A stretch of DNA of 64,000 nt from Patescibacteria group bacterium (GCA_026415975.1 JAOAFZ010000002.1:49390-113389), one strand, 5' to 3'; positions 5,696-54,067 are shown, counted from the first letter of the stretch. Made by a program: numbers and translations. Notes: generated by a model from the sequence alone, not told the origin.

Positions 5696-6633
5696 CTGGA
5701 TGATTTTCTGATCACATTTTTCCGATGTTCAATCTCTTTCCGGCTCGGGTGATGATTCACAGTGCCATATTTTTCAACTGCGAAACTTGCAAGAGCATTC
5801 CCATATGCGAGACTGTCTATGACAGATTCTCCTTGCTGCAAACCGTACAGAAATCCGGCTCTCCAGGCATCACCGGCACCCGTGGGATCAATTACTTTTT
5901 TTAGTGTATACGCAGGCACAACATACTTATTCGATTTATCACGATACAACAATCCGTGTTCTCCAAGGGTAGTAATAACTGAAACCCCTGCGTTTACCAC
6001 TTCATCCTCGGTGAGCCCAGTGCGTGATAACATAGCAGATATCTCATAGTCGTTCCCAACAAGCCATTTTGCATGGAGAGTTCCCTCCCGCAAAAGCTCC
6101 GCGGTATTCCATGACAGAGTCATACCAGGGTCGTACAGATAGGTCAGCTTGTTTTCGATGGCCTGTTTCTGAAATGAAACAAATGCATCCGGATGATTTG
6201 CAGATAGTACCAGAACAGAAGTTCCAGTACCGTTTTGTGAAATTCGAATGTGTTTTGCATGTGAGCAAGCTCCATAGTAAAAACCCCATATCTGATTATT
6301 GTCTATGTCGGTTATCACATGACCGGTAGCCGAGTACATCGTAGTATCTATGAGGACTTCTGATGTATCGACCTGATGCGATTGAAGAAAGTCAAGAATG
6401 GGCTGACCATCTTTTCCGACACTGGCTAGCAGTTTTACACCGCTACAACCCACAAGACCGAGATTATATGCAATATTCGTTGCAGTACCTCCAAATTGTC
6501 TTTCGAGTTTATCGACTACAAAAGATACATTTAGTAAATGGAGTTTATCAGGTTGCAAATGTTCCTGAAACCGTGACGGAAAATCCATGATTACATCAAA
6601 ACTCATGGAACCGGTTACCAGTATTTGTTTCAT
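5692..6633 (-). CDS. PfkB-family carbohydrate/nucleoside kinase
   Basis: GGTATNIAYNLG near the N-terminus and the DPTGAGDAWRAGFLYGL signature near the C-terminus. It overlaps the downstream GT2 by 4 nt. Confidence 0.8.
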   Translation of the reverse strand: MKQILVTGSMSFDVIMDFPSRFQEHLQPDKLHLLNVSFVVDKLERQFGGTATNIAYNLGLVGCSGVKLLASVGKDGQPILDFLQSHQVDTSEVLIDTTMYSATGHVITDIDNNQIWGFYYGACSHAKHIRISQNGTGTSVLVLSANHPDAFVSFQKQAIENKLTYLYDPGMTLSWNTAELLREGTLHAKWLVGNDYEISAMLSRTGLTEDEVVNAGVSVITTLGEHGLLYRDKSNKYVVPAYTLKKVIDPTGAGDAWRAGFLYGLQQGESVIDSLAYGNALASFAVEKYGTVNHHPSRKEIEHRKNVIRKSSR

Positions 6634-26889: not shown

Positions 26890-28020
26890 TCATCTTTTTC
26901 GATGGTGCCACCACCACAGAATCCCTGCACCTGCACCCACAACCAAAAGAACAAGAACTACAGGAAAATACTCCACCCGTCTTTCTACAATCAGTGTCAG
27001 CTCTGGAGCTTGGTCCTCTGCTGAAAGTGCGACTGTCTTGCTTCCAGTAAAACCGTTATCATTCACAGCAAACTCTTCGGTTGTTCCGGTTACTGGCAGG
27101 CGGACAATACCCTTATCGTTTGTTGTTCCTTCCGAGCGGCTGGTTGTGGCCCGTACCAAAACTCCCGCAACACCGCTACCCGTTTTGTCTCTAACCCAAA
27201 TCGTCACGGTGCGTTGTGCCTCTTTTTTTGAGCCTGCATCGTCTTTTGGATTTTTGGGAGCCTTCGTGATCGAGACGAGAGCGGGTTCCTCTGGGGTAGG
27301 TGTGGGCGTTGATGGTATCGGTGCCGAGAGCGCCAGGTTTCTGAAAGAAACCAGCGAGACTGTCTTAGCACTTATTTCGTTAGACCACGGACCGCTAGCG
27401 CACCCGTTTCCTGCTCGAATACGGAAGTAATACCTAGTGCTTGGCCACAGGTGCTCAACAAGATAGTTTCGGCTGCTTTGTCCTCCAATTGGCTCCGCGC
27501 CAAACTCTAGCCCTCCTTCTGTTGTTCCGTATGCGAGCACATAGTGGGTAAGCGGGGGATCTGCTTCTGCAAAGTAGAGCCGGATTGCAGTTGGCGATTC
27601 AGAAATAGCGGAGTAAATCCAGGGAGCTTTTGCACCGGGTGCTTGGCGTTGGCAAACGGGTGGCGCTGGCATTTCTGCCGTGCCTGCTCCAGTGCCTATT
27701 GACGGAGGCGACGCCCCAATTGTGGGAGTAGCAGATGGTGCAGGTGGAGGAGTTTCTGTGGGAGTTGGTGTGTTCGTTGGTGCTAATGCGGGCTCGTACA
27801 ATCCAAACGCCGAGAACTCTGTTGTTGCGCACGTTACCGAATTTTGCACTGCATTTACGACACAGTCTGCTAGCTCATTAAAAGCTGAACCGTTCCACCG
27901 GTACATGGATAGCTCAGATTCACTAACACCAGCGATATCAGTATCGGAGTACTTGAAGGTGATGCTCACTGGCTGATCGAAGGTGGTAATCTCACTGGTA
28001 ACACTGAGCTGGGCATTCAA
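26890..28020 (-). CDS. C-terminal part of the large surface protein (FN3, CarboxypepD_reg-like, C-terminal TM anchor), separated from the upstream ORF by a frameshift
   Basis: An FN3-like segment (STRYYFRIRAGNGCASGPWSNEISAKT), VTIWVRDKTGSGVAGVLV...GIVRLPV, and a terminal VVLVLLVVGAGAGILWWWHHRKR. This frame stays open upstream to 28092 (…TAVSSAIGKPAGLQDVGIAIYNLNAQLSV…), overlapping the end of the 1400-aa ORF. Confidence 0.6.
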   Translation of the reverse strand: MNAQLSVTSEITTFDQPVSITFKYSDTDIAGVSESELSMYRWNGSAFNELADCVVNAVQNSVTCATTEFSAFGLYEPALAPTNTPTPTETPPPAPSATPTIGASPPSIGTGAGTAEMPAPPVCQRQAPGAKAPWIYSAISESPTAIRLYFAEADPPLTHYVLAYGTTEGGLEFGAEPIGGQSSRNYLVEHLWPSTRYYFRIRAGNGCASGPWSNEISAKTVSLVSFRNLALSAPIPSTPTPTPEEPALVSITKAPKNPKDDAGSKKEAQRTVTIWVRDKTGSGVAGVLVRATTSRSEGTTNDKGIVRLPVTGTTEEFAVNDNGFTGSKTVALSAEDQAPELTLIVERRVEYFPVVLVLLVVGAGAGILWWWHHRKR

Positions 28021-31000
28021 GTTGTAGATGGCAATCCCAACATCCTGAAGTCCAGCCGGCTTACCGATGGCACTGCTGACGGCGGTGCGCGGTCAAGCCG
28101 TTGAATCTGAAACTGCGCGGTGCTACCAAAATAGCCAGCTGGAACTGCGAGAGAAATTCCGCGACCTGTTCCATCGAGGAGGGAAATGGTACCGCCTACT
28201 GAGGGAAGTATTGTATCGGTCTCTACCTCAAGAGCCGATGAGCTACCAGCACAACCTGTTGTGGTGATCTCGGCAACTGCACCCTGCCCAATGTTATGGG
28301 CCAGATCAGTGGTGCTTGGTCGCACCACGTAGGTGGTGCAAGGCAGAAGGCCTAGGATAGAAGCAGTGTGAGCGGTAACTCGCGGATAAAGATTTGTTTC
28401 GCTCGTAACGCTGGAGGGCAGGGTTACACCATAGTAAAGACGGCTTGAGCCTGACTCCGTACTGTTCCAGGTTGCGCTGATCGTGGTGTCAGATGGCGTA
28501 TACAGACTACCAAAGATTCCAGGCGGTGTGGTATCTTCTGTGATCGGCTCATTGAAATGCACTGACCAGTTGTAGAGAGCAGAGCTATAAAGTGATGTGG
28601 TGGAATCTGAGTCGCGCAAATTTCCACGAGCAGAATCAACAGAGTCGGCACCGGGGCGTGCGCCGGATACACCGGTATAGGCGTATCTGAGGAGCTGATT
28701 ACTTCCGCTCGGAGTGCTGTCGAGGGTAATTCGTACAGTATCTTGACCATCCATTGCCACGGAACTGATTGATGCTGTGTTTCCGTCGTCGGCGTATTCA
28801 AAGCCCATATGTGTTTGTGCTAAAACCTGTACGGTATCAAAAACCAACGGTGATTCCGGAACTTCGAACCGTACAGAGACAACATCCCCGTTCCGGACTA
28901 CCTCAGCCGGTATGAGTGCAGTTGTGGTCTGCCCGTTGAGTACCCGACTTATGGCCTTGCCATAGTACTCCCTAAGCCGTCGATAGCCTGAGTTTGTAAG
29001 GTAGATGTTATCTGAGGCATACGTAAATTGATAGCGTGGCCCGATCATGTAAATATCCGGGTTGTTTCGTGCGACATTCAGCTGTGCAATAACAAGTGGC
29101 GCGGTTGCTAGGTTATAAGCGGTAAAATTACTGCTTTGATCGATAAAAAATGGAACGTTTCCTGTTTGATCCGCTGCGTTGTTTCCGTCGGTTTCGTAAT
29201 CTTGCTGCCACTGGTTCAAGAAGGTTTCGTAGGCAAGGCCATCGGCAAAGTTAGCTGGGCCGTGAATCATGGCTACACCGGCAAAGCGGTACCCGAACCC
29301 GCCGCTTGCTGCGATCGTTCGCGCGTTTGTTATCTGAGTAATGCCGTTTGCAAACGATGTGGTTGTACCTCCTTTGCGTAGCTGATCATATGTGGCTCCG
29401 GGAATCCCGTTTCTGGTGACCACCATTCCTAGATTGCCTCCAGTAAGCGCCGTGACCGTGTTCCCGAGGGCTGATGCAGGAGTCTCAACTGCAGTTGCCG
29501 GAAGGTTATCGTCTACATCGTCGTTCTCGATCAAGCTCACAAATGCGGTGCCGGTTCCATTGAGCTTTACATTGTTGTATGGCTGTGAGGTAGTAAGAGC
29601 AGGCGCACCATCGTAACCGATTGAAAGGCTTTGGCCAGCAAGAAGTATGTGAAAATACCCAGGCTGAACAGGACCGTAACTTACGCTTTGCACGAGCAAC
29701 CCGTCGGTGGGAGGGGAAGTAGAACGAGGGGTAACCTCGAAGCGCAGGTATCGGCCTTCGTCTGAAGGCGAGACTGTGTACGATTGCGCCGTTGCTCCGG
29801 CAATTGCCGTAAATGGACCGCCGGCAGAAAACGATGACATCCAACGGAAAGTGATGCCACTTTCTGGGTCACCGTTTGGATCAAGATACTGATATGAGCC
29901 AGTTATCGTTTCCCCAGTTGCGACTGTACCGCTTATTACTACGTTTTGTGCAATGGGGGGAGCGGGGGTTGTAGATATGGGCGTTGCGGATTGAATTGCT
30001 GAGGCCGAGCCCATGCCCTGACTGTTTATTGCTGAAACCCAAAACTGATACAGTTGCCCATTTGTAAGTCCGGTTACGATTGCCGAGGTTGCTGTTGATA
30101 GGCCATCTGGGAATACGCTAAAGCTACCACTTGTTCCGGGACGGTATTCAATTTGATAGTCGGTAATTGGAAAGCCGTTGTCTCCAGGCTCTGTCCATGA
30201 CAAAGACACCTGCGCATCCTGAGGAGTTGCGGTAAGGCCGGTTGGAGCATCGGGCACTTGTGCCTGAGACTCCGGGCCGGCTGAGGTTGTTGGTGGGTTT
30301 TGGGCAAACTTTCGAACCAAAACCCAGTCGACTGCCAAATCGGAGATATCGGTTGCCCCCGAATTCGACCCACGAAAATACCCTAGCCAAAGGTAAAACG
30401 ACCCCGACCAGCCTGGGGTATGGGGCGACTCGGTACCTGGTAATTCAGTTCTGTTCCGGTAAAAGTAGACATTTGTACTAGTAATCGCCGTTCCGATTAT
30501 GTACTTTGTACCGGTTGTCATCGACGCAAGTAAGTTGGCGGGGGAAGCAATGTCGTACGATGCACTTGCTCCTGAGGCCGCAAGCCCATAATGATCTGAT
30601 GCGCCACTACCGCGCAAGAAATATGCTAGCGAGGCGGCACTGGGGTTGTTTGAGGAATCGGTGTCTGTCCTGTTGGCAATCATAAGACCGGACTGGCTCA
30701 GATCGTTATTTATCCAGGTTGCCTGAGCTTCTGCAATCATATTTGGTTGCGTTCCAACGGTTGCATTTGTATACACAGCACCGGATTGAATCGTAATGGT
30801 ATCCCCGGCAAGCGAATAACCACTTGCCCCATTGGTAGAGGTCCAAACCGAGCCATCAAGAGTAGTAAAGCTGTCGAAGAAATCAAAGGTTGCACTCCCG
30901 TTTGTTCCTGCTGAGGCAGAAGGGGAGCCATAGTACAAGTATATTGTTTTATCTGACGATGCCGGAATGGTAGGAACTCGTATCCAGATTCGCGTGGATG

Positions 31001-32219
31001 CTGTATTGCAACCATTAGTCCCCTCTGTCTCGATCCAATAGAACAAATTCGTAGTCTGATCCGAATCGCGCACCCGCATGTCGTCACAATCTGCTTGGAG
31101 CTTTCCAGCGCCAATGAGTCCCGCTGTGTCTATGGTAAGGAGCACCTGAAAATCGGATAGAACAAAGGACTCGTTGTTTGTGATTGTAATCGGAACACGG
31201 TATGTCGTACCATCAGGAAAGCTACCTGGAACTATTGTCGGTGTAGGTGTCGGCGTTGGTGTAGGTGTCGGTGTTGGCGTGTCTGTCGGCGTCGGCCCGC
31301 TAAACGGCGAGTCTGCCACCCAAGCAGGCCCGGAAGGTGATCCACCTATATTGAGCGTCCCGTTGCTTGGTCCGCCAGACGCCGAGGAGTAATCGCGCAG
31401 AATGCTCCCTTCGCCTTCATCGAAGTGGTACAAGGAGGCAGTATTCGCATCAGGAATAAATGGTGCAGACGGAAGCGTGAATGAGGATGTATACCGCAAG
31501 TTTGTTGAGATCCGTAACTCATCTAGCTTTCCGTTGTATGACGGGTACGCCGAACCTGCATCATGTTTTTCAGCACCGAGAACAATATAAGGGTCGCGAA
31601 TGCAGATTCCACCCCAGCTGCCGCCGGGACCCTGACAGTAAGGTGTGCTCTGAATGCTCGCAGGGACTCCATCAGGGTACGACACATCGCCATCCGGGCC
31701 ATCCTGTTGCTGTTCGAGCACGCCGTCGACAAATATTGACATCTGTCCATCGGAGTAACGGCGCGTTACAGCAATATGATGCCAGTTCGAATCGGTTACG
31801 TCGGTTGTACCGCAGATGGTTGTTGCCTCATTGAGATCATTTACCACGCCAAATGCAATTGCACCGTTTTCGGTAGGCGAGATACCGTACTTTCTTCCGT
31901 AGTTGAAGCGGTTTTTGTCGTAGATAATGTTTCCGTTAATCCAGTTATTTTGGTTCACATTGCATCCGACGTCTGTTGCACCGGCTCTACTTTGAGTGCC
32001 CGCTTTAATCCAAAATTCGATCGTAAAGTCGGTATCCCCGACATCTGCCGGGCGGTGCGGGGAATCGACAGCGATCACCACCCTGTCCTGATCGAGCGCG
32101 TTCACGCCATTCCCGTAAAATTGGAGTGAGTACTGAGCATCCGCATCCTGTTCTGCGGATATCGAAATAGCCGGCGGATTGGCTACATATTGACGTGTTA
32201 ACACCCAGTCTACAGTCAT
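28017..32219 (-). CDS. large surface protein, intact central ORF (LamG-like, PT linker, DUF2341-like module, FN3, esterase-like region)
   Basis: LamG-like DFTIEFWIKAG...WHHIAVTRRYSDGQMSIFVDGV, then the PTPTDTPTPTPTPTPTPTPT linker. The DUF2341-like module reads YRVPITITNN...CDDMRVRDSDQTTNLFYWIE...IYLYYG. The FN3 segment is PDAPTGLTATPQDAQVSLSWTEPGDNGFPITDYQIEY. HILLAGQSLSIG resembles GQSN-type sialate-O-acetylesterase motifs. There is no signal peptide at Met 32219. Confidence 0.7.
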   Translation of the reverse strand: MTVDWVLTRQYVANPPAISISAEQDADAQYSLQFYGNGVNALDQDRVVIAVDSPHRPADVGDTDFTIEFWIKAGTQSRAGATDVGCNVNQNNWINGNIIYDKNRFNYGRKYGISPTENGAIAFGVVNDLNEATTICGTTDVTDSNWHHIAVTRRYSDGQMSIFVDGVLEQQQDGPDGDVSYPDGVPASIQSTPYCQGPGGSWGGICIRDPYIVLGAEKHDAGSAYPSYNGKLDELRISTNLRYTSSFTLPSAPFIPDANTASLYHFDEGEGSILRDYSSASGGPSNGTLNIGGSPSGPAWVADSPFSGPTPTDTPTPTPTPTPTPTPTIVPGSFPDGTTYRVPITITNNESFVLSDFQVLLTIDTAGLIGAGKLQADCDDMRVRDSDQTTNLFYWIETEGTNGCNTASTRIWIRVPTIPASSDKTIYLYYGSPSASAGTNGSATFDFFDSFTTLDGSVWTSTNGASGYSLAGDTITIQSGAVYTNATVGTQPNMIAEAQATWINNDLSQSGLMIANRTDTDSSNNPSAASLAYFLRGSGASDHYGLAASGASASYDIASPANLLASMTTGTKYIIGTAITSTNVYFYRNRTELPGTESPHTPGWSGSFYLWLGYFRGSNSGATDISDLAVDWVLVRKFAQNPPTTSAGPESQAQVPDAPTGLTATPQDAQVSLSWTEPGDNGFPITDYQIEYRPGTSGSFSVFPDGLSTATSAIVTGLTNGQLYQFWVSAINSQGMGSASAIQSATPISTTPAPPIAQNVVISGTVATGETITGSYQYLDPNGDPESGITFRWMSSFSAGGPFTAIAGATAQSYTVSPSDEGRYLRFEVTPRSTSPPTDGLLVQSVSYGPVQPGYFHILLAGQSLSIGYDGAPALTTSQPYNNVKLNGTGTAFVSLIENDDVDDNLPATAVETPASALGNTVTALTGGNLGMVVTRNGIPGATYDQLRKGGTTTSFANGITQITNARTIAASGGFGYRFAGVAMIHGPANFADGLAYETFLNQWQQDYETDGNNAADQTGNVPFFIDQSSNFTAYNLATAPLVIAQLNVARNNPDIYMIGPRYQFTYASDNIYLTNSGYRRLREYYGKAISRVLNGQTTTALIPAEVVRNGDVVSVRFEVPESPLVFDTVQVLAQTHMGFEYADDGNTASISSVAMDGQDTVRITLDSTPSGSNQLLRYAYTGVSGARPGADSVDSARGNLRDSDSTTSLYSSALYNWSVHFNEPITEDTTPPGIFGSLYTPSDTTISATWNSTESGSSRLYYGVTLPSSVTSETNLYPRVTAHTASILGLLPCTTYVVRPSTTDLAHNIGQGAVAEITTTGCAGSSSALEVETDTILPSVGGTISLLDGTGRGISLAVPAGYFGSTAQFQIQRLDRAPPSAVPSVSRLDFRMLGLPSTT

Positions 32220-33220
32220 ATCGGTAATATCGGTGGTGCCAGCGTTTATACCATTAAAATGGCCCAGCCATCAATAAAACGGATCCGACCAGGTGCCATC
32301 ATAGGGGCTGGTCGGACCCGTAACGACCGTGCGATCCAGGTAGTAGTAAAGGTTGCTGTTAGTAACTGCCGTTCCGATAATGAACTTTTGGTCGAATGCA
32401 ATTGCTCCAAGATCGTCAACTGGCGCAATATCGTAGCCTGCCGCGCTACCTGAGGCACCGTTGCCAAACAGATTGTTCACACTGGCACTGCCACCGCGGA
32501 GAATAAAAGAAAGTGACGCGGCGGTGCCGTTTCCTGAGGTGATGTTGCGTGTGTCTGCGATGATAAGACTGGCAATACCAGCCTGAGTTGCGCTATTCCA
32601 GCTCACCTGAGCCTCAGCTATCGTGTTTGGCTGAGTGCCAACGGTTGTGTTGGTGTAAACCGCTCCAGAGTTTATCGTAAGGGAACTTCCGCTCTAAGAG
32701 TATCCCGATACGCCATTAGTCGAGGTCCAAACAGAATTATCAAACGAGGTAAAATCATCGAAGAATGGGAACGTATTTGCTCCGTTTGATGCCGCAGGCA
32801 ACGCGGAATCTCCGTAGTAGACGTAGATATATCGCGTAGAATTTGCCGGTATCGAGGGTACTTCCACCCAGATTCAGGTAGCAGTTGTGTTGCAGCCTGT
32901 GGAGTTATCAGTTTCGATCCAGTAATCAAGGAGAGTGGACTCATCTGCGTCCCGAAAACGCAGATCGTTGCAGTCGCTACGCAACTTGTTTGCTGAGATT
33001 AAAGCGGCAGTATCGAGAGTAACGAGAATCTGGTAGTTCGTAAGTGCTGAGTTGCCGGTATTATCGATTGAGATGACACGGCGGTACTGAGTGTTGCCTG
33101 GGCCTGAGGCAAAGACCTCTGGTGCTTGGTACGAAAACCTAAGTAGAAGCCGATTACTCCGACTCCCACTGCAAGAAAGAAAGCCCACGAAAATCGTATT
33201 AGAGTACTTATTAGCCTCAT
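32220..33220 (-). pseudogene. disrupted N-terminal portion of the same surface-protein gene (signal-anchor plus a first DUF2341-like module)
   Basis: ATG 33220 gives MRLISTLIRFSWAFFLAVGVGVIGFYLGF (TM anchor). A frameshift at the T-run near 33133-33138 leads into YQAPEVFASGPGNTQYRRVISIDNTGNS.... This is the same frame as ORF 28017-32219 but is interrupted by TGA 32874-32876, TAG 32694-32696 and TGA 32271-32273. Each stop aligns to R, L and L respectively in the downstream paralogous module. Confidence 0.75.
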
Positions 33221-33386
33221 TATACAAAGTTTTTATACAAAGTTTTTGGCAGTATGTCTTCTGCAAGCTCGTACTAAATCTGCAATAAGTGTTTTTAGTA
33301 ACATCTACATCAAAGAGTCATTTGGTTTGGCTTAAGCTTCGAATGAAGGCGTAACAAATAGAAACTGTAAGCGATTGCTTAAGAGG

Positions 33387-33617
33387 CTATTTTTTCCTTA
33401 AAGCTCCCACTGCCTCGCCCTCGATTGGAATAACTGGATCTATCAGTGTTTGGGAACTCATCAGCATGCTCCCCAGAAGCATGATAATGCCGACAATCTG
33501 GCTCGCGGTAAACGTATTCTGAAAAAACACTACCCCAATTACCAGTGCCGATGCCGGCCAGGCAAGCTCACAAATGGTGGCGACACGAGCTGGAGTGTGT
33601 TTTAATCCTCGGTAATA
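33387..33617 (-). pseudogene. orphan 3'-terminal fragment of an EamA/DMT transporter gene
   Basis: It encodes ...YYRGLKHTPARVATICELAWPASALVIGVVFFQNTFTASQIVGIIMLLGSML..., homologous to only the last ~75 residues of the EamA gene at 41736-42737. Homology ends at 33617. Confidence 0.8.
33550..33617. repeat. 68-bp perfect direct repeat, left copy (candidate att core)
   Basis: Identical base-for-base to 41899-41966 (gatgccggccaggcaagctcacaaatggtggcgacacgagctggagtgtgttttaatcctcggtaata), compared by eye. Confidence 0.9.
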
Positions 33618-33648: not shown

Positions 33649-34116
33649 CTACCGGATATAGTCTTCAAGGAGGTGATAGTATTTATCCTGAATGTCTTTC
33701 CGGACCCAGCGTTCGGTGAGGCGTTTTATTGAGCCATTTTCTGCACGGATAGCTGTACAGTTTTCATAATAGAAGCCGGAGCCGGTGGCCAAAAACAGAT
33801 ACGAGGGATCCCAGCGCCGAAGTATTGTATGAATCCTGTCCGCGATCGTCTCACGATCAATACGGCGCATATAGTCTACTTCCACGACCATGACATCGGT
33901 TTTATCCTGCGAAATCAATACATAATCCGGTGCGGCGGTAAGATTCTCGAGAATTTTGCGGACATAGGGGTGCCGTTTATGCTCACTAAGCGTCTCGATG
34001 GAGTCGGCGTGACCGATCGGGATTACCGTATATCTGCCAGCCTCGCGGAACATTTGTTCAAAAACAGTAGCAGTGATCTTCCGACGAATGAGTCTGTGGA
34101 GAGCTCGGGTTTCCAT
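33649..34116 (-). CDS. small PD-(D/E)XK-like (Hjc/restriction-endonuclease-fold) protein
   Basis: The pattern VFEQMF...PDYVLISQDKTDVMVVEVDY fits the E...D...E-x-(K/D) layout of the fold. This assignment is tentative. TATACT sits 6 nt upstream of the ATG. Confidence 0.45.
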   Translation of the reverse strand: METRALHRLIRRKITATVFEQMFREAGRYTVIPIGHADSIETLSEHKRHPYVRKILENLTAAPDYVLISQDKTDVMVVEVDYMRRIDRETIADRIHTILRRWDPSYLFLATGSGFYYENCTAIRAENGSIKRLTERWVRKDIQDKYYHLLEDYIR

Positions 34117-34490: not shown

Positions 34491-35398
34491 TCACCCAATC
34501 AACATCCCGTCCGACACCCACCCCCGCAGCCGCTCCGGCAGTACTTCGTCTATCCTCCGCATATCCTCATCCACAATCTCAATCAGCGTCAGGCCATACT
34601 TTTGGTAGATCGCGACCTTCTCCTCCCGCCGTTCCGTGTACACCGGGTTATCCATTCCCCAGGCCTCGATATATACGTTGCCCTTGCCGCAATCGGGGAT
34701 CCAGAAGTCGCAGAAAAGGCATTCGGCTACCGGAACCCGCCGTTCGTACCCATGGCAGATCCGGTTGCGGAAGAGCCAGTCGTCGATAATCTGCTCCATG
34801 CGGCTGCGGACAATGTGCCCGTCGGTACAATAGATGTCCGGGCGGGGAAGTCTGCTAGTGGGGAGGTGCAGATCGCACTCTGTGTTTGTGGTTTCCGGAA
34901 GCGGGCGTTGCAGGTGCTGCTGCCGGAACACGGCAAAGAGTTTGGTGCAGGCCTCACCGGAGATCTGAGTATGGGGGTATTCGCCGGTGTCGGTGCGGGT
35001 AAAGGGAACGATGTTTTGCAGGTGGTCGCGGTGAATGCGCCGGTACGAGCTGGTAGGCTGTATGCGTACCTGCACGGGAAGCCGGCCGCCCCAGGCATCC
35101 GGCTCAAATTCCCACTGTACCCCTGAGGCGGCTACGAAGGGCCCCAGGAACTCGTGGGTGGAGTAGTTGTACAGAAAAAGCGAGTTCCCGGGCTGAACGC
35201 CATCAACAAAGTGATAGCTGCAGCCATGCCAAAGAGGTTGCGATCCAGGCATTCCGCCTCGGACTGAGCGTTGCAGCAGAAGATATAGGCATGGTCGGGA
35301 AGAGTTTGATCGAGTAGGGGGGCTGTGTCGGCAGCAGCGGGTATCCCGGGAGTGCTCCCTGGGAACTTATCCTGAGAAGTTTGTGCTGGTATTTGCAT
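34491..35398 (-). pseudogene. DCD (PUA-like) domain fused to a PD-(D/E)XK-type nuclease domain; one frameshift near 35200-35230
   Basis: ORF 35132-35398 gives HAYIFCCNAQSEAECLDRNLFG. ORF 34491-35252 continues in another frame with SYHFVDGVQPGNSLFLYNYSTHEFLGPFVAASGVQWEFEPDAWGGRLPVQVRIQP. Together they closely match the plant-type DCD consensus (IFxCNxxTxxECxxxxLFGLP...PGxxLFLxNYxxxxLxGxFxAxSxG...P.QV). The C-terminus VRSRMEQIIDDWLFRNRICHGYERRV...CDFWIPDCGKGNVYIEAWG...YQKYGLTLIEI resembles the nuclease module found at the N-termini of HelD/Rep-like helicases. Confidence 0.65.
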
Positions 35399-41735: not shown

Positions 41736-42737
41736 TTATTTTTTCCCGATCGCCCCTACTACCTCTCCCTCGACCGGCACTGCTGAGTCTTTCTGTGTCC
41801 GTGAGATCACCAGCATACTGCCGAGCAGGATAACGATGCCAATAATCTGACTCACTGTAAACGAATTCTTGAAGAACACGATTCCGATTATTAGCGATGA
41901 TGCCGGCCAGGCAAGCTCACAAATGGTGGCGACACGAGCTGGAGTGTGTTTTAATCCTCGGTAATACAGAAGCATTGCCGCGGCTCCGGTAATCAGCACA
42001 ATCATAGCCAGCGCACCCATCTGCTCCGGAGTAAGGGACACAAACTGCGAAAGCTCGTGCGATCTGCCGAATACATCACTGGCACCGGTTAGGGTCTGGA
42101 ACGCGGAGAAAGTCGCAAACAGGAGGAGCGAGAATACCGCAGCGATTGAAAACCGCAGAAACGCCAGTGTACCAAATGAGACCTTGTGCAAAATCAGCTT
42201 CCCGAACGAAGTGGCGGAGCCCCAGCTTGCTGCAGCAAGAAGAGCAAGGAAGCCCGCGAGGGCAGTTCCGGTGCCGGTATCTAGATTAGGGCGCATATCC
42301 GGAAAAACGATCAGGTATACACCAGCCATTGCCACTGCGGCGAGCAAAAGAAAATGCCGCGTAATCTTCTCTTTCAGTACCAGACCCGCAATAAGCACCG
42401 CCCAGATCGGCTGTGTCTGCTGCAAGAGCACCACAATCGAGAAGTTGATGAAGTTGATCTGGGTAAGCGCATACGTATACAGAATTACGGCTACCGAACT
42501 GGCAATTACCCCGATAAAAAAAACCGGCCCCCAATCAGCGTAGGTGAGTTTCTTGAGCTCATGCCGGGTTCTCCAGAAGAAGGGGAGTATAAGACCCAAA
42601 CCCAGCAGATGCTCCCAGAAAGAAACCAAGATCGGGGGGAGTGTATACAGACTCGTCCGTAAAAAGCCGTCCAGACTCCACAGGATCGCGGTAAGAACAA
42701 TTAACAACGGACCGAACGGGGAAAGTGATTTTCCCAT
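41736..42737 (-). CDS. EamA/DMT-family transporter (intact)
   Basis: A 333-aa protein with 10 TM helices and two EamA-like halves. It contains the right copy of the 68-bp repeat. Confidence 0.85.
   Translation of the reverse strand: MGKSLSPFGPLLIVLTAILWSLDGFLRTSLYTLPPILVSFWEHLLGLGLILPFFWRTRHELKKLTYADWGPVFFIGVIASSVAVILYTYALTQINFINFSIVVLLQQTQPIWAVLIAGLVLKEKITRHFLLLAAVAMAGVYLIVFPDMRPNLDTGTGTALAGFLALLAAASWGSATSFGKLILHKVSFGTLAFLRFSIAAVFSLLLFATFSAFQTLTGASDVFGRSHELSQFVSLTPEQMGALAMIVLITGAAAMLLYYRGLKHTPARVATICELAWPASSLIIGIVFFKNSFTVSQIIGIVILLGSMLVISRTQKDSAVPVEGEVVGAIGKK
41899..41966. repeat. 68-bp perfect direct repeat, right copy
   Basis: Identical to 33550-33617. Confidence 0.9.
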
Positions 42738-43039: not shown

Positions 43040-43505
43040 GACCCTGAAGGCTATTGTTATTGTACCGGATCATATTGTCCTGTCAAGATTACGTTATGAA
43101 TGCCCGGACAGGAAGACATTCGCGCCGCAGCACGCTGATAGGTATCCGGTATTTTGAATAAAAATTCTAAGGTTATCAGTATGCTACCGGATTACCGGAT
43201 ATGGGACATTTAATTCACCTACATCAAAAACGGGGAAAAGTATGTGTATCCTGCAACTTTCATGGATCTATACACCAGATAGATTGTAGACTGGCATCTG
43301 TCTCACCGGCATTCTAGGATGCGGTAGAAAAGAAAAGAACGCCTGCATAAAGATCGTTCGTTCAGATCAGGGCCTAGAATATACAAACGAAACCTACACA
43401 AACCTTCTTTCTTAAGCTTGATATACAGATCTCTATGAGGAAAAAAGGCAAGCCCCTGGGAGAATAGAACCCATACAACGCTAAAAAGCCTCCGTACCAA
43501 CACAG
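43040..43505 (+). mobile_element. decayed IS3-family (rve/DDE) transposase remnant
   Basis: Across three frames with stops it reads RIWDI*FTYIKNGEKYVYPATFMDLYTR*IVDWHLS (compare W.TDITYI....YLA.V.DL.SR.IVGW.MS), IVRSDQGLEYTNETYTNLLS (compare HSDRGSQYTS) and ISMRKKGKPLGE*NPYNAKK (compare SMSRKGNCWDNA). It may extend upstream towards about 42890. Confidence 0.6.
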
Positions 43506-43669
43506 ATTACTATATCAAAATCAATTCATGGAAAAAATACTCAAAAAAAACTGAATACTTGATAAGACTGGCTCCCGGTATTGAATGGGGTGATTTTTTA
43601 ATTAGTATGAGTTTTAGGCAAATATACCTGTCAGGATTCTAATCTTATCGGGGCCTATACTGCCAGCAT

Positions 43670-44340
43670 ATGAAACTCATTGTATGTTACGGAGAAGTCC
43701 TTATAGATATGATTTCGACCATATCCAGCAGCTTGGTCGACGCGGACGGGTTCCTTTAAGAGGTTCGGGGGTGCGCCCGCAAATACGGCAACAGGAATTG
43801 CAAAACAGGGAATTCCGGTTTCGTTCCTGGGTAAAGTCTGGAAAGATCCATTCGCCGCTTACTTGAAAGCGACACTCGAAAGCTATGGCGTAGACATCTC
43901 ACCTCTGGTAGAAAGCGAAACCGACAAGACGACACTCGCGTTCGTGTTCCTGACCGAGAACGGGGAGCAAGATTTCACATTCTATCGGGATGCCCACGAG
44001 TCGATTACCGCGCCCGAGCTATCGTTTCCGAGGGATGCCGCTATTCTGCACTACGTGTGAAAATCAACGAACAAGAAATGCGGCTCCTCGCCGGCACGGA
44101 TTCGCCAGAAGAAGCGGCGGGAAAGCTCTTCGCAGACCGGACCGTTTCACTCTGCATAACGATGGAAGCGAACGGGTGCTACCACAAGACCAGGAACTCA
44201 GCCGGCATGGTACCCGCGATTTCTGTGGACGTGTGCGCGGAAGCTGGAATTCCTTTAACGCTGGTTTTCTGGCCGCGTTAGCCAGCTGTGACGCTAGAGG
44301 AGATTGCGGCAAACGTCTGACGCTTCGTTATCGGAGATGA
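43670..44340 (+). pseudogene. PfkB-family fructokinase pseudogene (at least 3 frameshifts)
   Basis: MKLIVCYGEVLIDMIS...* is followed, in other frames, by FKRFGGAPANTATGIAKQGIPVSFLGKVWKDPFAAYLKATLESYGVDIS...TLAFVFLTENGEQDFTFYRD...AAILHYV*, then KINEQEMRLLAG..., then ...GSWNSFNAGFLAAL (the GAGD region). Confidence 0.7.
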
Positions 44341-44416
44341 TCCAGCCAAGGAATCGAGTCGCCAATTTTGTTTTGTATAGTTACAGTAAACAGCTCGTTC
44401 TGTTAATGTTATAGGT

Positions 44417-48769: not shown

Positions 48770-51079
48770 ATGTCTCAGCTTATCGATCAGGCATTTCAAC
48801 TCGCCCTCGAAAATTTACAGAAGAACCGGACCAAATTCGGCCTGGTAGCATCCCGCTCCGTCAACACCGATGATAAGCCGCCATACGATTATCTCTTTCC
48901 CCGCGATACCGGGGTAAGCGTATTCGGGCTCATGTTCTCCGATGATCCGGAGATGCTGGAACTGGCCCGCGTATCCATCGAGTCGCTGGCGATTGCGCAA
49001 TCGGACAAAGGACAGTTTCCACAGAGCTACCGGTTGGACAGCAACCGACCAGAGTGGTGGCATCCGGGTACGGTGGACAGCACGCTCTGGTGGTCTATCG
49101 CGCTGCTGAAATACTTCGAGAAAACGGGGGACCGCGCGTTTTTTAATTCGCATCGCGAACGGCTAGAGCGCGCGTTTACCTGGCTCACTTACCAAGACAC
49201 CAACAACGACAGCCTACTAGAACAAGGCGAAGCCGCTGGCTGGGACGATGAGTTTCCGCGTCATGGGACGGTGCTGTATACCAACGCCTTATGGTACTGG
49301 TTGGTTCGACTGCGCGTTGAGGTCGAGGGCAGAGAGGAACTTAAGGTACTTCAGGATAAAATCCGGGAGGGTGTAAATACCTTCTTGTGGGTTCACAAAG
49401 GAGACGACCACACCCGTAACTACTTCCCCGAAAACGATTACACCCGCAACACGTTTTTTTCGTTCCGCCTGATGGAATGGGTGAACGCGCAGGCCGTCGT
49501 GCTGCCGTATTACCTGGGCTATGTGTCTCACCTCTCGTTCGAGATGCGCTGCGATGTGTACGGGAATATCCTGGCATGCCTTTCTGGGCTTGCTGACGAC
49601 AAACGCAAACGCCTTATCGTAGACTTTATCTTCCGCGCCGGGATCAACGTGCCGTTCCCAGTGAAGGTGCTGTATCCGCCGATCTACCCAGGTGAAAACG
49701 ACTGGCGGCCGTATATGAGCAAAGGGCGGCAGAACTACCCGTGGCAGTACCATAACGGCGGTATCTGGCCGTACGTGGGCGGTTTCTGGGTGGTACTGCT
49801 GGCGCAGATGGGCCACCCGAAAGCGCATGAAGAGCTGGAAAAGCTGGCAAAAGCAGCTAGTCTGAATGACTGGGAGTTCAACGAGTACCTGCACGGCCAG
49901 AACGGTACTCCGATGGGGATGACGTTCCAGACTTGGAATATGGCAATGTACGTGGCGGCGTACAAGGCCGTTTCGCATACCAAAGCCGAGCAGCAGACGG
50001 TTCCGGTGGTGTCAATGGACGAGCTTACCGAAATCCGCGACCGCCTGACCGATGCCCTGCGGGCCGGTGCGGAGGGCCGGGAAACCGCACTACCCTTTAT
50101 CCGCCAGCAGATGCCGGACGGACCGGTGGTGCAGAAGGACGAGACGTTTCAGGTGATCGTGATCGGGGGGAGCGTGTACAAAAACGTGCTGATGCGCAAG
50201 CTCGAGGGCTATTCGATGATCGATCATCTGGAGGAGGGGAATCTGCCGACGCTCGATACGAAGGAGGGGTTCCTGGAGTTTGTGGGTAGCCTGGCTGACC
50301 GGAACGTAAACGCGATAGCAATCAATTTCGCGCACGCAATCGGGAGTACTCTGCGCAACGGACTGGTAGACGGCAAACTGCTTTTCGGAGCAAAGGAACA
50401 TACTCTTACCGGATTGGAAGGGAAATTCGTCGGAGAAACCATCGAACAGTACCTGGCGGAAACCCAACACCGCACCGTACGCGTTTCGGTGGCAAATGAT
50501 ACCGTGTGTCTGCTCCTGTCCAGCCTGCGGCGCTACGAGTGGAATCGGTCTGCCTGCGGCATAGTTGGTACCGGATTGAACTTCGCCATGTTTGCCGACG
50601 CACAAACAGCGATAAATCTGGAATCGGGGGAGTTCGGCGACTTTCCGCTGTCGGAAGCGGCGAAACTCGTGGATGAACGCTCCGCGAACCCCGGCAGCGG
50701 CTTACTTGAGAAAGAAATCGCCGGAGCCTACCTGTATCAGGCATACAACATCTACGCCGAACGGCTGGGTGTTGCCGGAGCACCGCTTACGGCAACCCGC
50801 GAGCTGGATAAAATCGCAACTGACCCGAATCATCCCGGACACCAGATTGCGCTGGCACTGCTGGAACGTTCGGCAGCTCTGGTAGCGGCTCAGGTGGCGG
50901 CAATCATGGCATACCATGATTGCGATATTGTATTTAACATGCTGGGCAGCCTGTTCTGGAAGGCCTCCGGCTACGAGGCGCACGTGGAAAAGTACACTGC
51001 CGCGCTCTCGTCGCACCGCGCCTCTTTCGTGAGCATTATGAACTCGGAGGTATATGGCGCAGCGCAGCTTGTCGCGTAA
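48770..51079 (+). CDS. fusion protein: an (alpha/alpha)6 glycoside hydrolase (GH100 invertase / GDE_C-like) plus a hexokinase-family kinase
   Basis: The N-half has YDYLFPRDTGVSVFGL, GTVDSTLWWSIALLKYFEKTGD, GGIWPYVGGFWV and EFNEYLHG..GTPMG...QTWNMAMY. The C-half has FQVIVIGGSVYK (phosphate-1), INFAHAI, VANDTVCLL, CGIVGTGLNFAMF, NLESGEF, LEKEIAGAYL and MLGSLFW...VYGAAQLVA, in the same order as canonical hexokinase motifs. Confidence 0.75.
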   Translation: MSQLIDQAFQLALENLQKNRTKFGLVASRSVNTDDKPPYDYLFPRDTGVSVFGLMFSDDPEMLELARVSIESLAIAQSDKGQFPQSYRLDSNRPEWWHPGTVDSTLWWSIALLKYFEKTGDRAFFNSHRERLERAFTWLTYQDTNNDSLLEQGEAAGWDDEFPRHGTVLYTNALWYWLVRLRVEVEGREELKVLQDKIREGVNTFLWVHKGDDHTRNYFPENDYTRNTFFSFRLMEWVNAQAVVLPYYLGYVSHLSFEMRCDVYGNILACLSGLADDKRKRLIVDFIFRAGINVPFPVKVLYPPIYPGENDWRPYMSKGRQNYPWQYHNGGIWPYVGGFWVVLLAQMGHPKAHEELEKLAKAASLNDWEFNEYLHGQNGTPMGMTFQTWNMAMYVAAYKAVSHTKAEQQTVPVVSMDELTEIRDRLTDALRAGAEGRETALPFIRQQMPDGPVVQKDETFQVIVIGGSVYKNVLMRKLEGYSMIDHLEEGNLPTLDTKEGFLEFVGSLADRNVNAIAINFAHAIGSTLRNGLVDGKLLFGAKEHTLTGLEGKFVGETIEQYLAETQHRTVRVSVANDTVCLLLSSLRRYEWNRSACGIVGTGLNFAMFADAQTAINLESGEFGDFPLSEAAKLVDERSANPGSGLLEKEIAGAYLYQAYNIYAERLGVAGAPLTATRELDKIATDPNHPGHQIALALLERSAALVAAQVAAIMAYHDCDIVFNMLGSLFWKASGYEAHVEKYTAALSSHRASFVSIMNSEVYGAAQLVA

Positions 51080-51194
51080 GGAGACCCACCCTGCAAACAG
51101 GGGTACAGGATACAAGAAGTTCGGCATCCTGATTGCATAGGGCGATCCACCTTCCAAACTAAGGGAGCGGAAGAGATGTAAACCAGTACCGGTC

Positions 51195-51203
51195 TGGTAT
51201 ACT
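51195..51203 (+). promoter_or_regulatory. extended -10 (TGgTATACT) 6 nt upstream of the glmS ATG 51210
   Basis: Read directly from the sequence. Confidence 0.5.
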
Positions 51204-51209
51204 GGTGCC

Positions 51210-52970
51210 ATGTGCGGAATTTTTGCCTACACGGGCCCGGATGCAACCGCCGGTGCAATAGTTCTGGAGGGACTTAAGTCGCTTGAGTACCGGGGCTACG
51301 ACTCGTGGGGTGTCGCGATCCGCACAGCTGACGGAACGATTTCGGTAATCAAACACACCGGCAAGATAGGGTCCGCCAAGCTCCCGCATATCGTCTCCCA
51401 TACGGCACTCGGGCATACCCGCTGGGCTACCCACGGCGGCGTCACGCAGGCCAATGCACACCCCCATCTCTCCTCTGACGGAAAAATCGTTCTGGTGCAT
51501 AACGGCATTGTAGAGAATTACCAGACGCTGAAACGAGAATTGCAGGAGCTCGGCTACGCGTTTCGCTCCGAAACCGACTCCGAAGTAATCGCACATCTGA
51601 TCGCTGAAACCCGGAAGTCTGTGTCCGACCCGGTCGCTTGTGTGCGCACCGCTTTCGAGCGGTTAATCGGAATGAACGGGGTGGTCTGCTATTTTGCCGA
51701 CGACGACACCTTTGTAGCGGTAAAGAACGGCTCGCCGCTGGTGTTTGCCCGGGCGGGAAAGGCCCGCCTCCTGGCCTCGGATCCGGCCGCACTGGCACCA
51801 CATTCCCGCGAAGTACTATTTCTGGAAGACGGTGATTGCATCGCAATCAGCCCTGACGGGGACACCTACTACGGAGCAGATGGTATGAAAAAACAGATGG
51901 TATTCCAGCTTCTAGACTTCGATCCGGAGGATGCACAACTGAATGGCTTTCCGCACTTCATGCTCAAAGAAATCCACGAACAGCCTGAATTGATCCGGAG
52001 GATTACAGAGGCTCAGGAAGAAGCCGTCAAGAAAGCCGCCGTCATGATCCGGGAATCCTATGGAACTTATCTGGTGGGCTGCGGCACGGCCTCCTATGCA
52101 GCACTGGCCGGCACCTACCTGTTCTCAAAAATCGCGGGCCGGCATGTGAACTTCTCGATCGCGTCGGAGTTCGCGTATCTCACGCAGTTTATCAGGGAGC
52201 GGTCGCTCGTGGTACCGCTCTCGCAGTCGGGGGAGACCATAGACGTTATCGATGGCGTTCGCGACGCGAAGATGCGAAAAGCACGGATAATGACCATCAC
52301 GAATGTGCAAGGGTCTTCACTTTTCCGCATGGCAGACTATGCGCTGCTTCTCGGGGCCGGACCGGAAAAAGCGGTCTGTTCCACAAAAGCCTTTACCGCA
52401 AAAGTAGCACTGCTCTTGCTGATCGCCCACGAACTTGCCGGCAATCGGGAGAGAGGGCAGGAAACACTAAAGCAGGCTGCGGCCGCTGTTGCCGACGTAC
52501 TGGACCGCAAAGATGAGCTTCGAGCACTGGCAGAGCGTATGCACCACCGGGACCACCTGTTTGTGCTGGGACGGGGTGTTTCGTATCCGGTGGCACTGGA
52601 GTCGGCCCTCAAGATCAAGGAAGTATCGTATATCCACGCCGAGGGATTTGCGGCGGGAGAACTCAAACACGGGGTTATTGCCCTGATCGAACAGGGGACA
52701 CCGGTACTTATTTACAACCCCGACGACGAAACCTACCATGACACGCTCTCGGCAGCACACGAAGTAAAGGCACGGGGTGCTTATGTGATCGGCGTTTCGA
52801 GCAGGAACTCGGATGTCTACGATGCATATTTTCACATAGATGACTGCGCAGATGCAACGATCATTCCCAACGTGGTGGTTGCCCAGTTCTTGGGGTATTA
52901 TCTGGCCGTCCTGAAAGGCTTTGATCCCGATAAACCACGAAACCTTGCCAAAAGTGTTACGGTAAAATAA
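51210..52970 (+). CDS. glmS: glutamine--fructose-6-phosphate aminotransferase
   Basis: MCGIFAY (N-terminal nucleophile Cys), GHTRWATHG, two SIS domains, and a C-terminal ...AKSVTVK. Confidence 0.95.
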   Translation: MCGIFAYTGPDATAGAIVLEGLKSLEYRGYDSWGVAIRTADGTISVIKHTGKIGSAKLPHIVSHTALGHTRWATHGGVTQANAHPHLSSDGKIVLVHNGIVENYQTLKRELQELGYAFRSETDSEVIAHLIAETRKSVSDPVACVRTAFERLIGMNGVVCYFADDDTFVAVKNGSPLVFARAGKARLLASDPAALAPHSREVLFLEDGDCIAISPDGDTYYGADGMKKQMVFQLLDFDPEDAQLNGFPHFMLKEIHEQPELIRRITEAQEEAVKKAAVMIRESYGTYLVGCGTASYAALAGTYLFSKIAGRHVNFSIASEFAYLTQFIRERSLVVPLSQSGETIDVIDGVRDAKMRKARIMTITNVQGSSLFRMADYALLLGAGPEKAVCSTKAFTAKVALLLLIAHELAGNRERGQETLKQAAAAVADVLDRKDELRALAERMHHRDHLFVLGRGVSYPVALESALKIKEVSYIHAEGFAAGELKHGVIALIEQGTPVLIYNPDDETYHDTLSAAHEVKARGAYVIGVSSRNSDVYDAYFHIDDCADATIIPNVVVAQFLGYYLAVLKGFDPDKPRNLAKSVTVK

Positions 52971-52973
52971 GAA

Positions 52974-54053
52974 ATGCCACCTCTTGCTATCCCCGACATT
53001 ATCCAGATGCGCGATGCGTTCGTTGAAGAAATGAAGCTCGCCGCCAAAGGCCAGAAAACCAGCATTCCGTTCATAAAACAGCGTATCGCCGAACACCCGG
53101 CGGTTGCGGAAGGCGAAACGTTCCAGGTGCTCATTATCGGCGGTTCCGTGTACAAATGGTCACTGGCACAACGCAGTGGCAGCACAGTGAGCTTTGATGA
53201 CCAAACCCAGGGAGCGCTTCCGGCGTTTAACGATCGGACCACCTTTCTTAACTTCATACTGGGGTTGATTTCCCCGGAAGTTTCCTCGGTGGCTATGAAT
53301 ATAGCCTACGCTCTTACGCCGACATTTCGGAACGGGCTCATGGACGGTGTACTGCTCTGGGGGTCCAAAGAGCACTCGTTTACCGGACTTATCGGTGTAG
53401 ATATCGGGAAAGCAATCGAGGACCATGCCGCGGCCGCAGGTAGAACGATCCGGGTAGCGGTGGCCAACGATACGATCTGCCTCCTACTCTCCGGCCGAGA
53501 CGAGTATCCGTGGAACGCATTTGCCTGTGGAATCGCCGGCACCGGACTCAACTTTGCGCTTTTTTCCGATCCTGTTACCGCGGTGAATCTACAATCGGGA
53601 GAGTTCGATAAACTCGAACTTACCCCGGAGGCTACAGAACTAGATTCCCAAAGCCAGGTGCCCGGGAGCGCCCTCCTGGAAAAGGAAACTGCTGGGGCGT
53701 ACCTGTTCCGCAAGTATCAGATCGGTCTGAAACAGCGGGGAATCGAGGCGCCGGCGATAAACTCTACAGCTGAACTTGATGGTATCGCAGCTGACGAATC
53801 ACACCCCGGCAGTGCACTCGCCAGGGAGATCCTGGAATACTCCGCAGCCCTTGTTGCCATGCAGGCGAGTGCCCTTGCCGAGTTCCAGGGGGGCAATCTG
53901 ACAGTACGAGTGGCCGGAGGCCTGTTCTGGAACGGCTATGGATACCGGGAAACTGCCGAACGTGTGGTACGCCAGCTTTCGCCGCAACGGCAGATCCGGT
54001 TCGTCGGAAGTGAATTGGCCGAACGGGTGGGGACGGCAAAACTGGTGTCATAA
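52974..54053 (+). CDS. hexokinase-family sugar kinase (stand-alone paralogue 2)
   Basis: FQVLIIGGSVYK, MNIAYAL, VANDTICLL, CGIAGTGLNFALF, NLQSGEF, LEKETAGAYL and GGLFW...VGTAKLVS are collinear with the C-half of 48770-51079. Confidence 0.75.
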   Translation: MPPLAIPDIIQMRDAFVEEMKLAAKGQKTSIPFIKQRIAEHPAVAEGETFQVLIIGGSVYKWSLAQRSGSTVSFDDQTQGALPAFNDRTTFLNFILGLISPEVSSVAMNIAYALTPTFRNGLMDGVLLWGSKEHSFTGLIGVDIGKAIEDHAAAAGRTIRVAVANDTICLLLSGRDEYPWNAFACGIAGTGLNFALFSDPVTAVNLQSGEFDKLELTPEATELDSQSQVPGSALLEKETAGAYLFRKYQIGLKQRGIEAPAINSTAELDGIAADESHPGSALAREILEYSAALVAMQASALAEFQGGNLTVRVAGGLFWNGYGYRETAERVVRQLSPQRQIRFVGSELAERVGTAKLVS

Positions 54054-54055
54054 GG

Positions 54056-54061
54056 TATAAT
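54056..54061 (+). promoter_or_regulatory. -10 box (TATAAT) 6 nt upstream of ATG 54068
   Basis: Read directly from the sequence. Confidence 0.5.
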
Positions 54062-54067
54062 TACCTC

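Follow-up and report, generated by a model that had tools for sequence, protein, structure and literature searches.

Giant proteins that combine DUF2341 modules with FN3 domains have been described in members of the bacterial candidate phyla radiation (CPR), in Patescibacterium danicum and among 82 other large CPR proteins; a role in adhesion or host interaction has been proposed for them, as have rapid evolution and domain shuffling (PMC11809585). Pseudogenes are reported to account for 5-10% of the genes in metagenome-assembled genomes (MAGs) of the CPR (Parcubacteria) (PMC11188291). Here we describe a gene for a giant surface protein that lies at positions 26890-33220 on the minus strand of a 64,000-nt stretch of DNA from a Patescibacteria group bacterium (GCA_026415975.1, JAOAFZ010000002.1:49390-113389), the whole of which we call the window. 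The gene is broken in five places and is probably a genuine, fairly recent pseudogene that was inactivated as a whole.

The broken gene resembles the giant CPR proteins in that its product would be very large, multi-domain and exported, with repeated DUF2341 modules and FN3 domains. It differs from them in length (about 2,100 aa, as against more than 4,000 aa), in having no FhaB domains, in carrying a LamG domain and a domain with an esterase fold, and in being inactivated (PMC11809585). Like ordinary CPR pseudogenes, it has stops and frameshifts relative to intact homologues and lies near decayed genes and an insertion-sequence remnant (PMC11188291); unlike them, it is unusually large, and four of its five lesions crowd into the first 15% of its length. 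The third comparison concerns the central domain, whose predicted fold is shared with SGNH/SASA-type O-acetylesterases and the Pan3 tailspike, and which in this family carries G-Q-S followed by D-x-x-H. In contrast to those esterases, the domain has no match at the sequence level (no Pfam family at E<=1 and no PDB sequence match better than E 0.9), the His of the second motif is Tyr in the window copy, and the activity of the family members is a prediction.

The gene is interrupted by three in-frame stop codons and two one-base frameshifts (Table 1). One minus-strand frame, with codons beginning at 33266-3k, stays open between 33266 and 28020 except at the three stops. The original prediction had placed three open reading frames (ORFs) in this one frame, parted only by single stops, and our translation reproduces both the stop positions and the flanking peptides exactly as they had been quoted. 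The interrupted sites are conserved as R, L/I and L in homologues, and a single base change separates each stop codon from a codon that the paralogous module or the orthologues have there. The sole N-terminal hydrophobic anchor, which starts at ATG 33220, is in a frame other than that of the three stops. It is separated from the remainder of the gene by frameshift 1, the equivalent of one missing base, which had been ascribed to a T run and which we place at a run of four Ts. The second frameshift, also the equivalent of one missing base, cuts off the C-terminal 398 residues; it had been assigned to the interval 28020-28092, and is now narrowed to the upper end of that interval, with the third reading frame, that of the tail, opening at 28092 after a TGA at 28093-28095. 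The detached tail contains the FN3 domain, the CarboxypepD_reg domain and the transmembrane anchor that had been reported for it, in the form of an fn3 match (E=2e-7), a CarboxypepD_reg match that is weak (E=3e-3) and a transmembrane segment at the C-terminus.

Intact homologues argue that these pieces belong together. A protein search with the 1,400-aa ORF retrieved P0002 (2,146 aa) and P0003 (2,122 aa), both at 55-56% identity and 98% query coverage. We then built a conceptual product of 2,111 residues, with an X at each stop and each frame change. This product aligns with P0002 and P0003 end to end and without rearrangement, from the signal anchor to the C-terminal anchor, with segment-wise identities of 24-76%, in agreement with the earlier claim of a single gene of about 2,100 codons carrying five breaks. 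The order of parts in these intact relatives (2,122-2,146 aa) is signal anchor, DUF2341 module, LamG domain, Pro-Thr linker, second DUF2341 module, FN3 and Ig domains, SGNH/SASA-like domain, FN3 domains, CarboxypepD_reg-like domain and C-terminal membrane anchor. Comparison of the 10-kb flanks of P0002 and P0003 with the window by tblastx revealed no shared neighbour genes. The broken gene and its two intact counterparts are members of the same family, with the same architecture, and not positional orthologues.

Two other readings of the stops were rejected. The genetic code is standard. Reassignment of stop codons (code 25 or 4, which some CPR lineages use) is out because TGA and TAG end intact genes (the terminators of 44 intact window genes are TGA in 17, TAA in 17 and TAG in 10) and because the stops inside the gene align to Arg or Leu, not to Gly or Trp. 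Selenocysteine and pyrrolysine are out for the same reason of alignment to Arg and Leu.

The 1,400-codon stretch downstream of the stops is probably not protected by selection. Its continued selection had been offered as one explanation of the open frame, with the rider that it would then have no export signal; the rider is correct, and the explanation is not supported. No signal peptide follows any of the internal ATGs, and the C-terminal membrane anchor of the stretch was lost through frameshift 2. The central domain has 131 columns without variation among the other eight homologues, and the window copy has changed 11 of them. None of the nine sequences has a higher count: the most divergent member has 10 such changes, the other disrupted gene 8 and the remaining six 1-4. 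Three of the changes fall within 12 codons (28968-29015) and form a second small cluster, namely His to Tyr (CAC to TAC type) in D-N-I-H, and Trp to Arg and Gly to Arg in GYRWLGE; each is one transition away from the family consensus codon type. Relative-rate counts for the central domain against four ingroup homologues gave 19-23 changes on the window lineage against 9-12 on the other, a ratio of about 2:1, whereas pairs among the other homologues were balanced.

The first module, which holds all three stops, is not decaying on its own. Selective degeneration of this module was another explanation put forward by the original prediction, and three measures speak against it. The orthologues are 54-55% identical to module 1 and 51-54% identical to module 2. 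A profile built from the orthologues' modules alone scores 351 bits with module 1 and 385 with module 2, within the 279-416 bits of the modules of intact relatives. The relative-rate count, made on columns that are invariant in an outgroup, is 23:26 for module 1 versus module 2; against five modules from four other loci, module 1 again gives a ratio of about 1:1, and the two most divergent relatives changed more than it did. A five-sequence leave-one-out count was dropped, as it is confounded by phylogeny. Of 66 columns that are otherwise invariant, module 1 does alter six, and these are confined to its second half. We rejected these as signs of decay, since the stretch is 66% identical to an intact homologue (L084) that has at least one of the same changes; at least one other (Y to H) is not common to both. 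Module 1 has no anomaly in the GC content of third codon positions (GC3) or in CpG, which speaks against biased hypermutation of the module. The two DUF2341 and jelly-roll modules share 52% identity in protein, 57% in DNA and 37% at third codon positions and are an ancient internal duplication; the last two values exclude repeat collapse or recent gene conversion between them.

Loss of the whole gene is thus our preferred reading, and could have come about in the following way. The export signal and the anchor would have been cut off by two one-base frameshifts, and the stop codons would each have arisen by a change of one base. The long open stretch would now be starting to gather changes at invariant sites, including the putative catalytic His. 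The whole gene would be dead, rather than the first module alone, and the bunching of the stops toward the 5' end would be due to chance or to a minor local effect. We infer that the lesions are present in the DNA of the cells and that inactivation was recent, corresponding very roughly to 1-3% neutral divergence. A single model of this kind fits most of the data, because whole-gene loss followed by 1-3% divergence leads one to expect five lesions, a few radical missense changes downstream and no excess in module 1.

Three observations weigh against this reading. The first is the position of the lesions, four of the five being confined to the first 15% of the gene. The target for nonsense mutations per codon is even along the gene, and for all three stops to lie among the first 317 of 2,109 codons the probability is 0.003, provided that the 5' end is named beforehand; post hoc, the probability is 0.026 for three stops within any 201 codons and 0.037 for four of five lesions within 284 codons. 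The clustering is therefore real but only nominally significant (post hoc P of about 0.03) and weakly unusual. The earlier statement that it is not what uniform decay predicts was right about the clustering and overstated its improbability. Neutral decay of the whole gene accounts for the bunching only as a moderately unlikely accident, and a local mutational effect or a population effect may lie behind it. The second is that the downstream relative-rate excess is not individually significant (p 0.06-0.2). The third is that three nonsense changes without a measurable missense excess in the same 300 codons are on the low side of what random mutation would produce.

The alternative to be weighed first is that the gene is intact in the cells and that a variable surface gene was misassembled or mispolished from a metagenome. 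The lesions do sit on an otherwise well-preserved coding sequence, with no missense excess in module 1, and both frameshifts are single-base events in short runs or simple sequence (T4 and CGCGC). Related genes are frequently found on short or gapped contigs, which suggests that such genes assemble poorly. However, the 44 other long ORFs tabulated in the 64-kb window are uninterrupted, most of them with full-length Pfam matches, which makes it unlikely that the assembly is error-prone throughout. The lesions differ in type and lie outside long homopolymers: three are substitutions, themselves of mixed type, and the runs at the frameshifts are too short for typical homopolymer errors. With the two DUF2341 modules only 57% identical in DNA, a collapse or chimera is not expected. 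Radical changes at invariant sites occur in the same ORF, and the neighbouring genes are truncated or decayed beyond what errors produce. The intact ORFs, the types of lesion and decayed neighbours that errors cannot create favour real decay over error, as do the disrupted homologue described below and the frequency of pseudogenes reported for CPR MAGs (PMC11188291), and we consider an artefact unlikely.

We regard as somewhat less likely a mixture of strains that carry different knock-out alleles, in which loss was favoured (for example by escape from phage or host defence) and which were merged by consensus or recombination. The merging of strain variants in the consensus had been the third explanation of the original prediction. 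In a mixture of null alleles, knock-outs would bunch at the 5' end because a stop early in the gene is the surest way to abolish function. The clustering of four lesions there, the nonsense changes without extra missense change in module 1, the independent knock-out of a homologue described below and the position of the gene in a variable envelope-glycan and defence island are all in keeping with it. Against it, a consensus takes the majority allele at each site, so that five independent minority alleles would not all enter; k-mer assemblers keep adjacent variants linked; and the protein and a housekeeping gene are each known from one assembly. Consensus error and strain mixture jointly hold about one-quarter of our belief. 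A related proposal, that the 5'-biased lesions reflect repeated selection for loss in natural CPR populations (of a phage receptor or a target of host defence, for example), with several null alleles here and another at the homologous locus L083, seems improbable.

Mutation could also have been raised locally in the 5' kilobase after the first lesion, for instance if premature termination left only the first part transcribed and the non-template strand exposed to C-to-T damage. Stop 1 is of the CGA to TGA type and stop 2 possibly of the CAG to TAG type, both C to T on the coding strand, and the cluster statistics point the same way. However, module 1 shows neither a missense excess nor a fall in GC3 or CpG, stop 3 requires a transversion if the ancestral codon was Leu, and ancestral states are not polarisable without a close relative; we give this explanation little credence. 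Finally, a shortened functional product from an internal start, at ATG 32219 or at ATG 31079 (the gene caller's choice), would explain the survival of the 1,400-codon ORF and could use a weak -10-like GATATT, which lies 7 nt upstream of the first of these ATGs (the genes of this organism look mostly leaderless), but it is very unlikely, given that no internal ATG is followed by a signal peptide, that frameshift 2 detaches the C-terminal anchor, that ATG 32219 falls in the final strand of module 1 and ATG 31079 within a DUF2341 domain, that the esterase-like domain no longer has its invariant His, Trp and Gly, and that all intact homologues are exported, anchored proteins.

Two programmed mechanisms were also excluded. 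A target of a diversity-generating retroelement, or of its hypermutation, is out because there is neither a reverse transcriptase nor a template repeat: no reverse transcriptase domain was found in the ORFs scanned, and the repeats in the 64 kb are a second copy of part of an EamA gene and a 36-nt chance pair. A phase-variable contingency gene is out because the frameshift sites are a T4 run and CGCGC, with no tandem repeat at either.

Table 1. Features of the broken surface-protein gene and of the insert upstream of it. Positions are those of the window.
Feature	Position	Strand	Remarks
Start ATG 33220 and signal-anchor/transmembrane segment MRLISTLIRFSWAFFLAVGVGVIGFYLGF, frame A	33125-33220	-	aligns with the N-terminal hydrophobic segment of P0002/P0003
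Frameshift 1, T4 run in GGTTTTCG	33134-33137	-	inferred from where homology changes frame
Module 1: DUF2341 and jelly-roll-like part	32187-33098	-	holds all three in-frame stops
In-frame stop 1, TGA	32874-32876	-	conserved Arg; CGA in paralogous module, CGG in orthologues
In-frame stop 2, TAG	32694-32696	-	Leu/Ile/Gln position; CTT, CTA, ATC, CAA, CAG in relatives
In-frame stop 3, TGA	32271-32273	-	conserved Leu/Val; CTT, CTC, GTC in relatives
LamG (Laminin_G_3) concanavalin-like lectin domain	31296-32186	-	best conserved part, 76% identity to orthologues
Pro-Thr linker	31224-31295	-	6 to 18-nt tandem repeats
Module 2: second DUF2341 and jelly-roll module	30306-31214	-	module 1's ancient duplicate
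FN3 domain and A9-type Ig domain	29661-30257	-	
Central domain, about 375 aa	28542-29660	-	predicted SGNH/SASA-like carbohydrate acetylesterase fold, then beta-sandwich
FN3-like domain and next segment	28089-28541	-	ends at frameshift 2
Frameshift 2, CGCGCACC	28086-28092	-	homology switches between LDR (to 28089) and TAV (from 28086)
Tail, third frame	26890-28086	-	beta domain, Pro/Thr linker, then FN3 to stop
Tail FN3	27361-27642	-	
Tail CarboxypepD_reg-like domain	26977-27216	-	
Tail transmembrane anchor, then basic tail	26908-26970	-	
Terminal TGA stop of the gene	26890-26892	-	
Two-gene insert, gene 1	33649-34116	-	155-aa protein, no known family
Two-gene insert, gene 2	34491-35252	-	253 aa; N-terminal DCD/EVE-like domain (Pfam Dev_Cell_Death, E 5e-11), C-terminal PD-(D/E)xK nuclease part

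The domains of the gene are summarized in Table 1. Pfam recognizes Laminin_G_3, DUF2341, fn3 and the A9-type Ig domain in the 1,400-codon ORF. DUF2341 (PF10102) scores 82.5 bits in module 2; in module 1 the domain is cut by stop 1 into two pieces, with profile positions 1-27 before the stop (22.5 bits) and 31-83 after it (61.9 bits). The Pfam matches are in favour of one gene. The Pfam gathering score is 23.4 bits, and the gene belongs to the family by that threshold. A perfect 13-nt tandem duplication (AAACTTTGTATAA, 2.2 copies) at 33220-33247 on the minus strand adjoins the start codon and duplicates a -10-like TATAAA/TATAAT box; it may be a promoter feature or a sixth lesion.

The fold of the central domain of about 375 residues was predicted with AlphaFold (AF2) from seven homologues (pLDDT 70, pTM 0.72; pLDDT below 50 around the D-x-x-H stretch). 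The predicted model has an alpha/beta/alpha hydrolase fold. Foldseek matched it to the esterase-type tailspike of cyanopodophage Pan3 (9vyh, E 8e-18), to the carbohydrate acetylesterase XAC1771 (7kmm, E 5e-10), and to the sialic acid esterase SIAE (8f9q), NanS (3pt5) and 2apj, as well as to plant and clostridial SASA-type esterases, with E values from 8e-18 to 4e-6 overall. The family has G-Q-S near the start of the domain and D-N/G-I/V-H later; by the order of the motifs, rather than by the model, these would be the putative Ser and Asp/His blocks of SGNH hydrolases. The window copy keeps G-Q-S, but the D-N-I-H that is invariant in the eight homologues is D-N-I-Y (codons 28998-29015), so that the putative catalytic pair of Ser and His is incomplete, the His being Tyr. 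The GYRWLGE of the family is GYRRLRE (28968-28988). Judged from its domains, the family protein may bind surface glycans and possibly de-acetylates them, and a role in contact with host cells is plausible.

The relatives have architectures that range from 1,068 to 2,146 aa. The genes at six other loci (L086, L087, L089-L092) are uninterrupted, and that at L088 is cut by a contig end and has a stretch of Ns. An apparent split of the homologue P0007 is no knock-out, and corresponds merely to a 10-N scaffold gap. A second gene in the family is disrupted. At locus L083, in another organism, the homologue P0004 (JGI 3300044940, Ga0484951_007365, about 3030-3060) is split into ORFs of 501 and 1,619 aa by a 7-nt tandem duplication (TCTACAT twice) inside the LamG domain. 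The family has thus suffered a knock-out independently at this locus, and a 7-nt duplication is untypical as a sequencing error.

Close relatives of the window gene itself are scarce, the nearest being about 55-68% identical in protein. A protein search gave the self-match and then nothing above 60% identity; a first genome scan gave no close relative, a metagenome scan gave at best 48%, and a second genome scan gave at best 68%, for the central domain. Exact-product look-ups of the window proteins gave no match, and in the collections searched the big protein and a housekeeping gene of the organism were each found in a single assembly. The taxon labels of the relatives are discordant. The MAG with the intact P0002 (locus L089, the same as L001; GCA_964412815.1, CAYPQF010000021.1) is labelled 'uncultured Gammaproteobacteria bacterium', and among the other relatives one is labelled Limisphaerales and one Flavobacterium. 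These labels suggest either that contigs were mis-binned or mislabelled or that the family has spread horizontally.

The window GlmS is closest to named Candidatus Roizmanbacteria proteins (57-59% identity), and MAGs labelled "Patescibacteria group bacterium" are among the nearest relatives of the big gene. On the strength of these matches, the organism is an uncultured CPR/Patescibacteria bacterium of the Microgenomatia type, nearest to Roizmanbacteria/Microgenomatia, and its lineage has no close relative in the collections searched. The window as a whole is an island of cell-envelope glycan genes, with many GT2/GT1/GT4 glycosyltransferases, a Wzm/Wzt-type ABC-2 exporter, a WsaF-like transferase, a GDP-mannose dehydratase, GlmS and a flippase. 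An unusual sugar-metabolism cluster at 48770-55153 on the plus strand encodes a 769-aa fusion of a GH100/GDE-like glycosidase and a hexokinase C-domain, GlmS and two tandem hexokinase-like genes. Across the window, a TAnnnT box ends 6-13 nt upstream of the start codon in 19 of 44 genes (against a background of 11%), and a Shine-Dalgarno-like motif is present in 3 of 44; leaderless or near-leaderless mRNAs seem to be the rule in this organism.

Several neighbours of the broken gene are themselves decayed. Directly upstream lies a 230-nt 3' remnant of an EamA transporter gene (33388-33617, minus strand) that is 78% identical to 41737-41966 (minus strand) in an intact EamA gene at 41736-42737. 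The remnant is without the first two-thirds of the gene, and the lost part seems to have been replaced by the two-gene insert listed in Table 1, the nuclease part of which matches the PADLOC candidate defence family PDC-S69 (E 5e-35). Farther away, an IS3-type rve transposase remnant at about 43100-43560 (plus strand) has stops and frameshifts, with one fragment matching Pfam rve (E 2e-7). It is followed by a PfkB sugar-kinase pseudogene that extends over three frames at about 43640-44400 (plus strand), matching Pfam PfkB with E 6e-20 over profile positions 33-123 and weakly over 188-251; an intact PfkB gene is present at 5692-6633.

For annotation, the fragments at 26890-33266 are best treated as one pseudogene, not as four or five "hypothetical proteins" nor as the 1,020-aa gene of the automatic caller. 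In itself the gene is an ordinary, fairly young pseudogene that raises no new question, and it provides one more example of gene loss, from a variable cell-envelope island in a bacterium that is ultra-small and probably depends on a host. The gene also draws attention to a giant CPR surface family whose intact members join sugar-binding modules (DUF2341 and LamG) to a domain with the shape of phage-tailspike and sialate O-acetylesterases, and which is a reasonable candidate for host-surface recognition.

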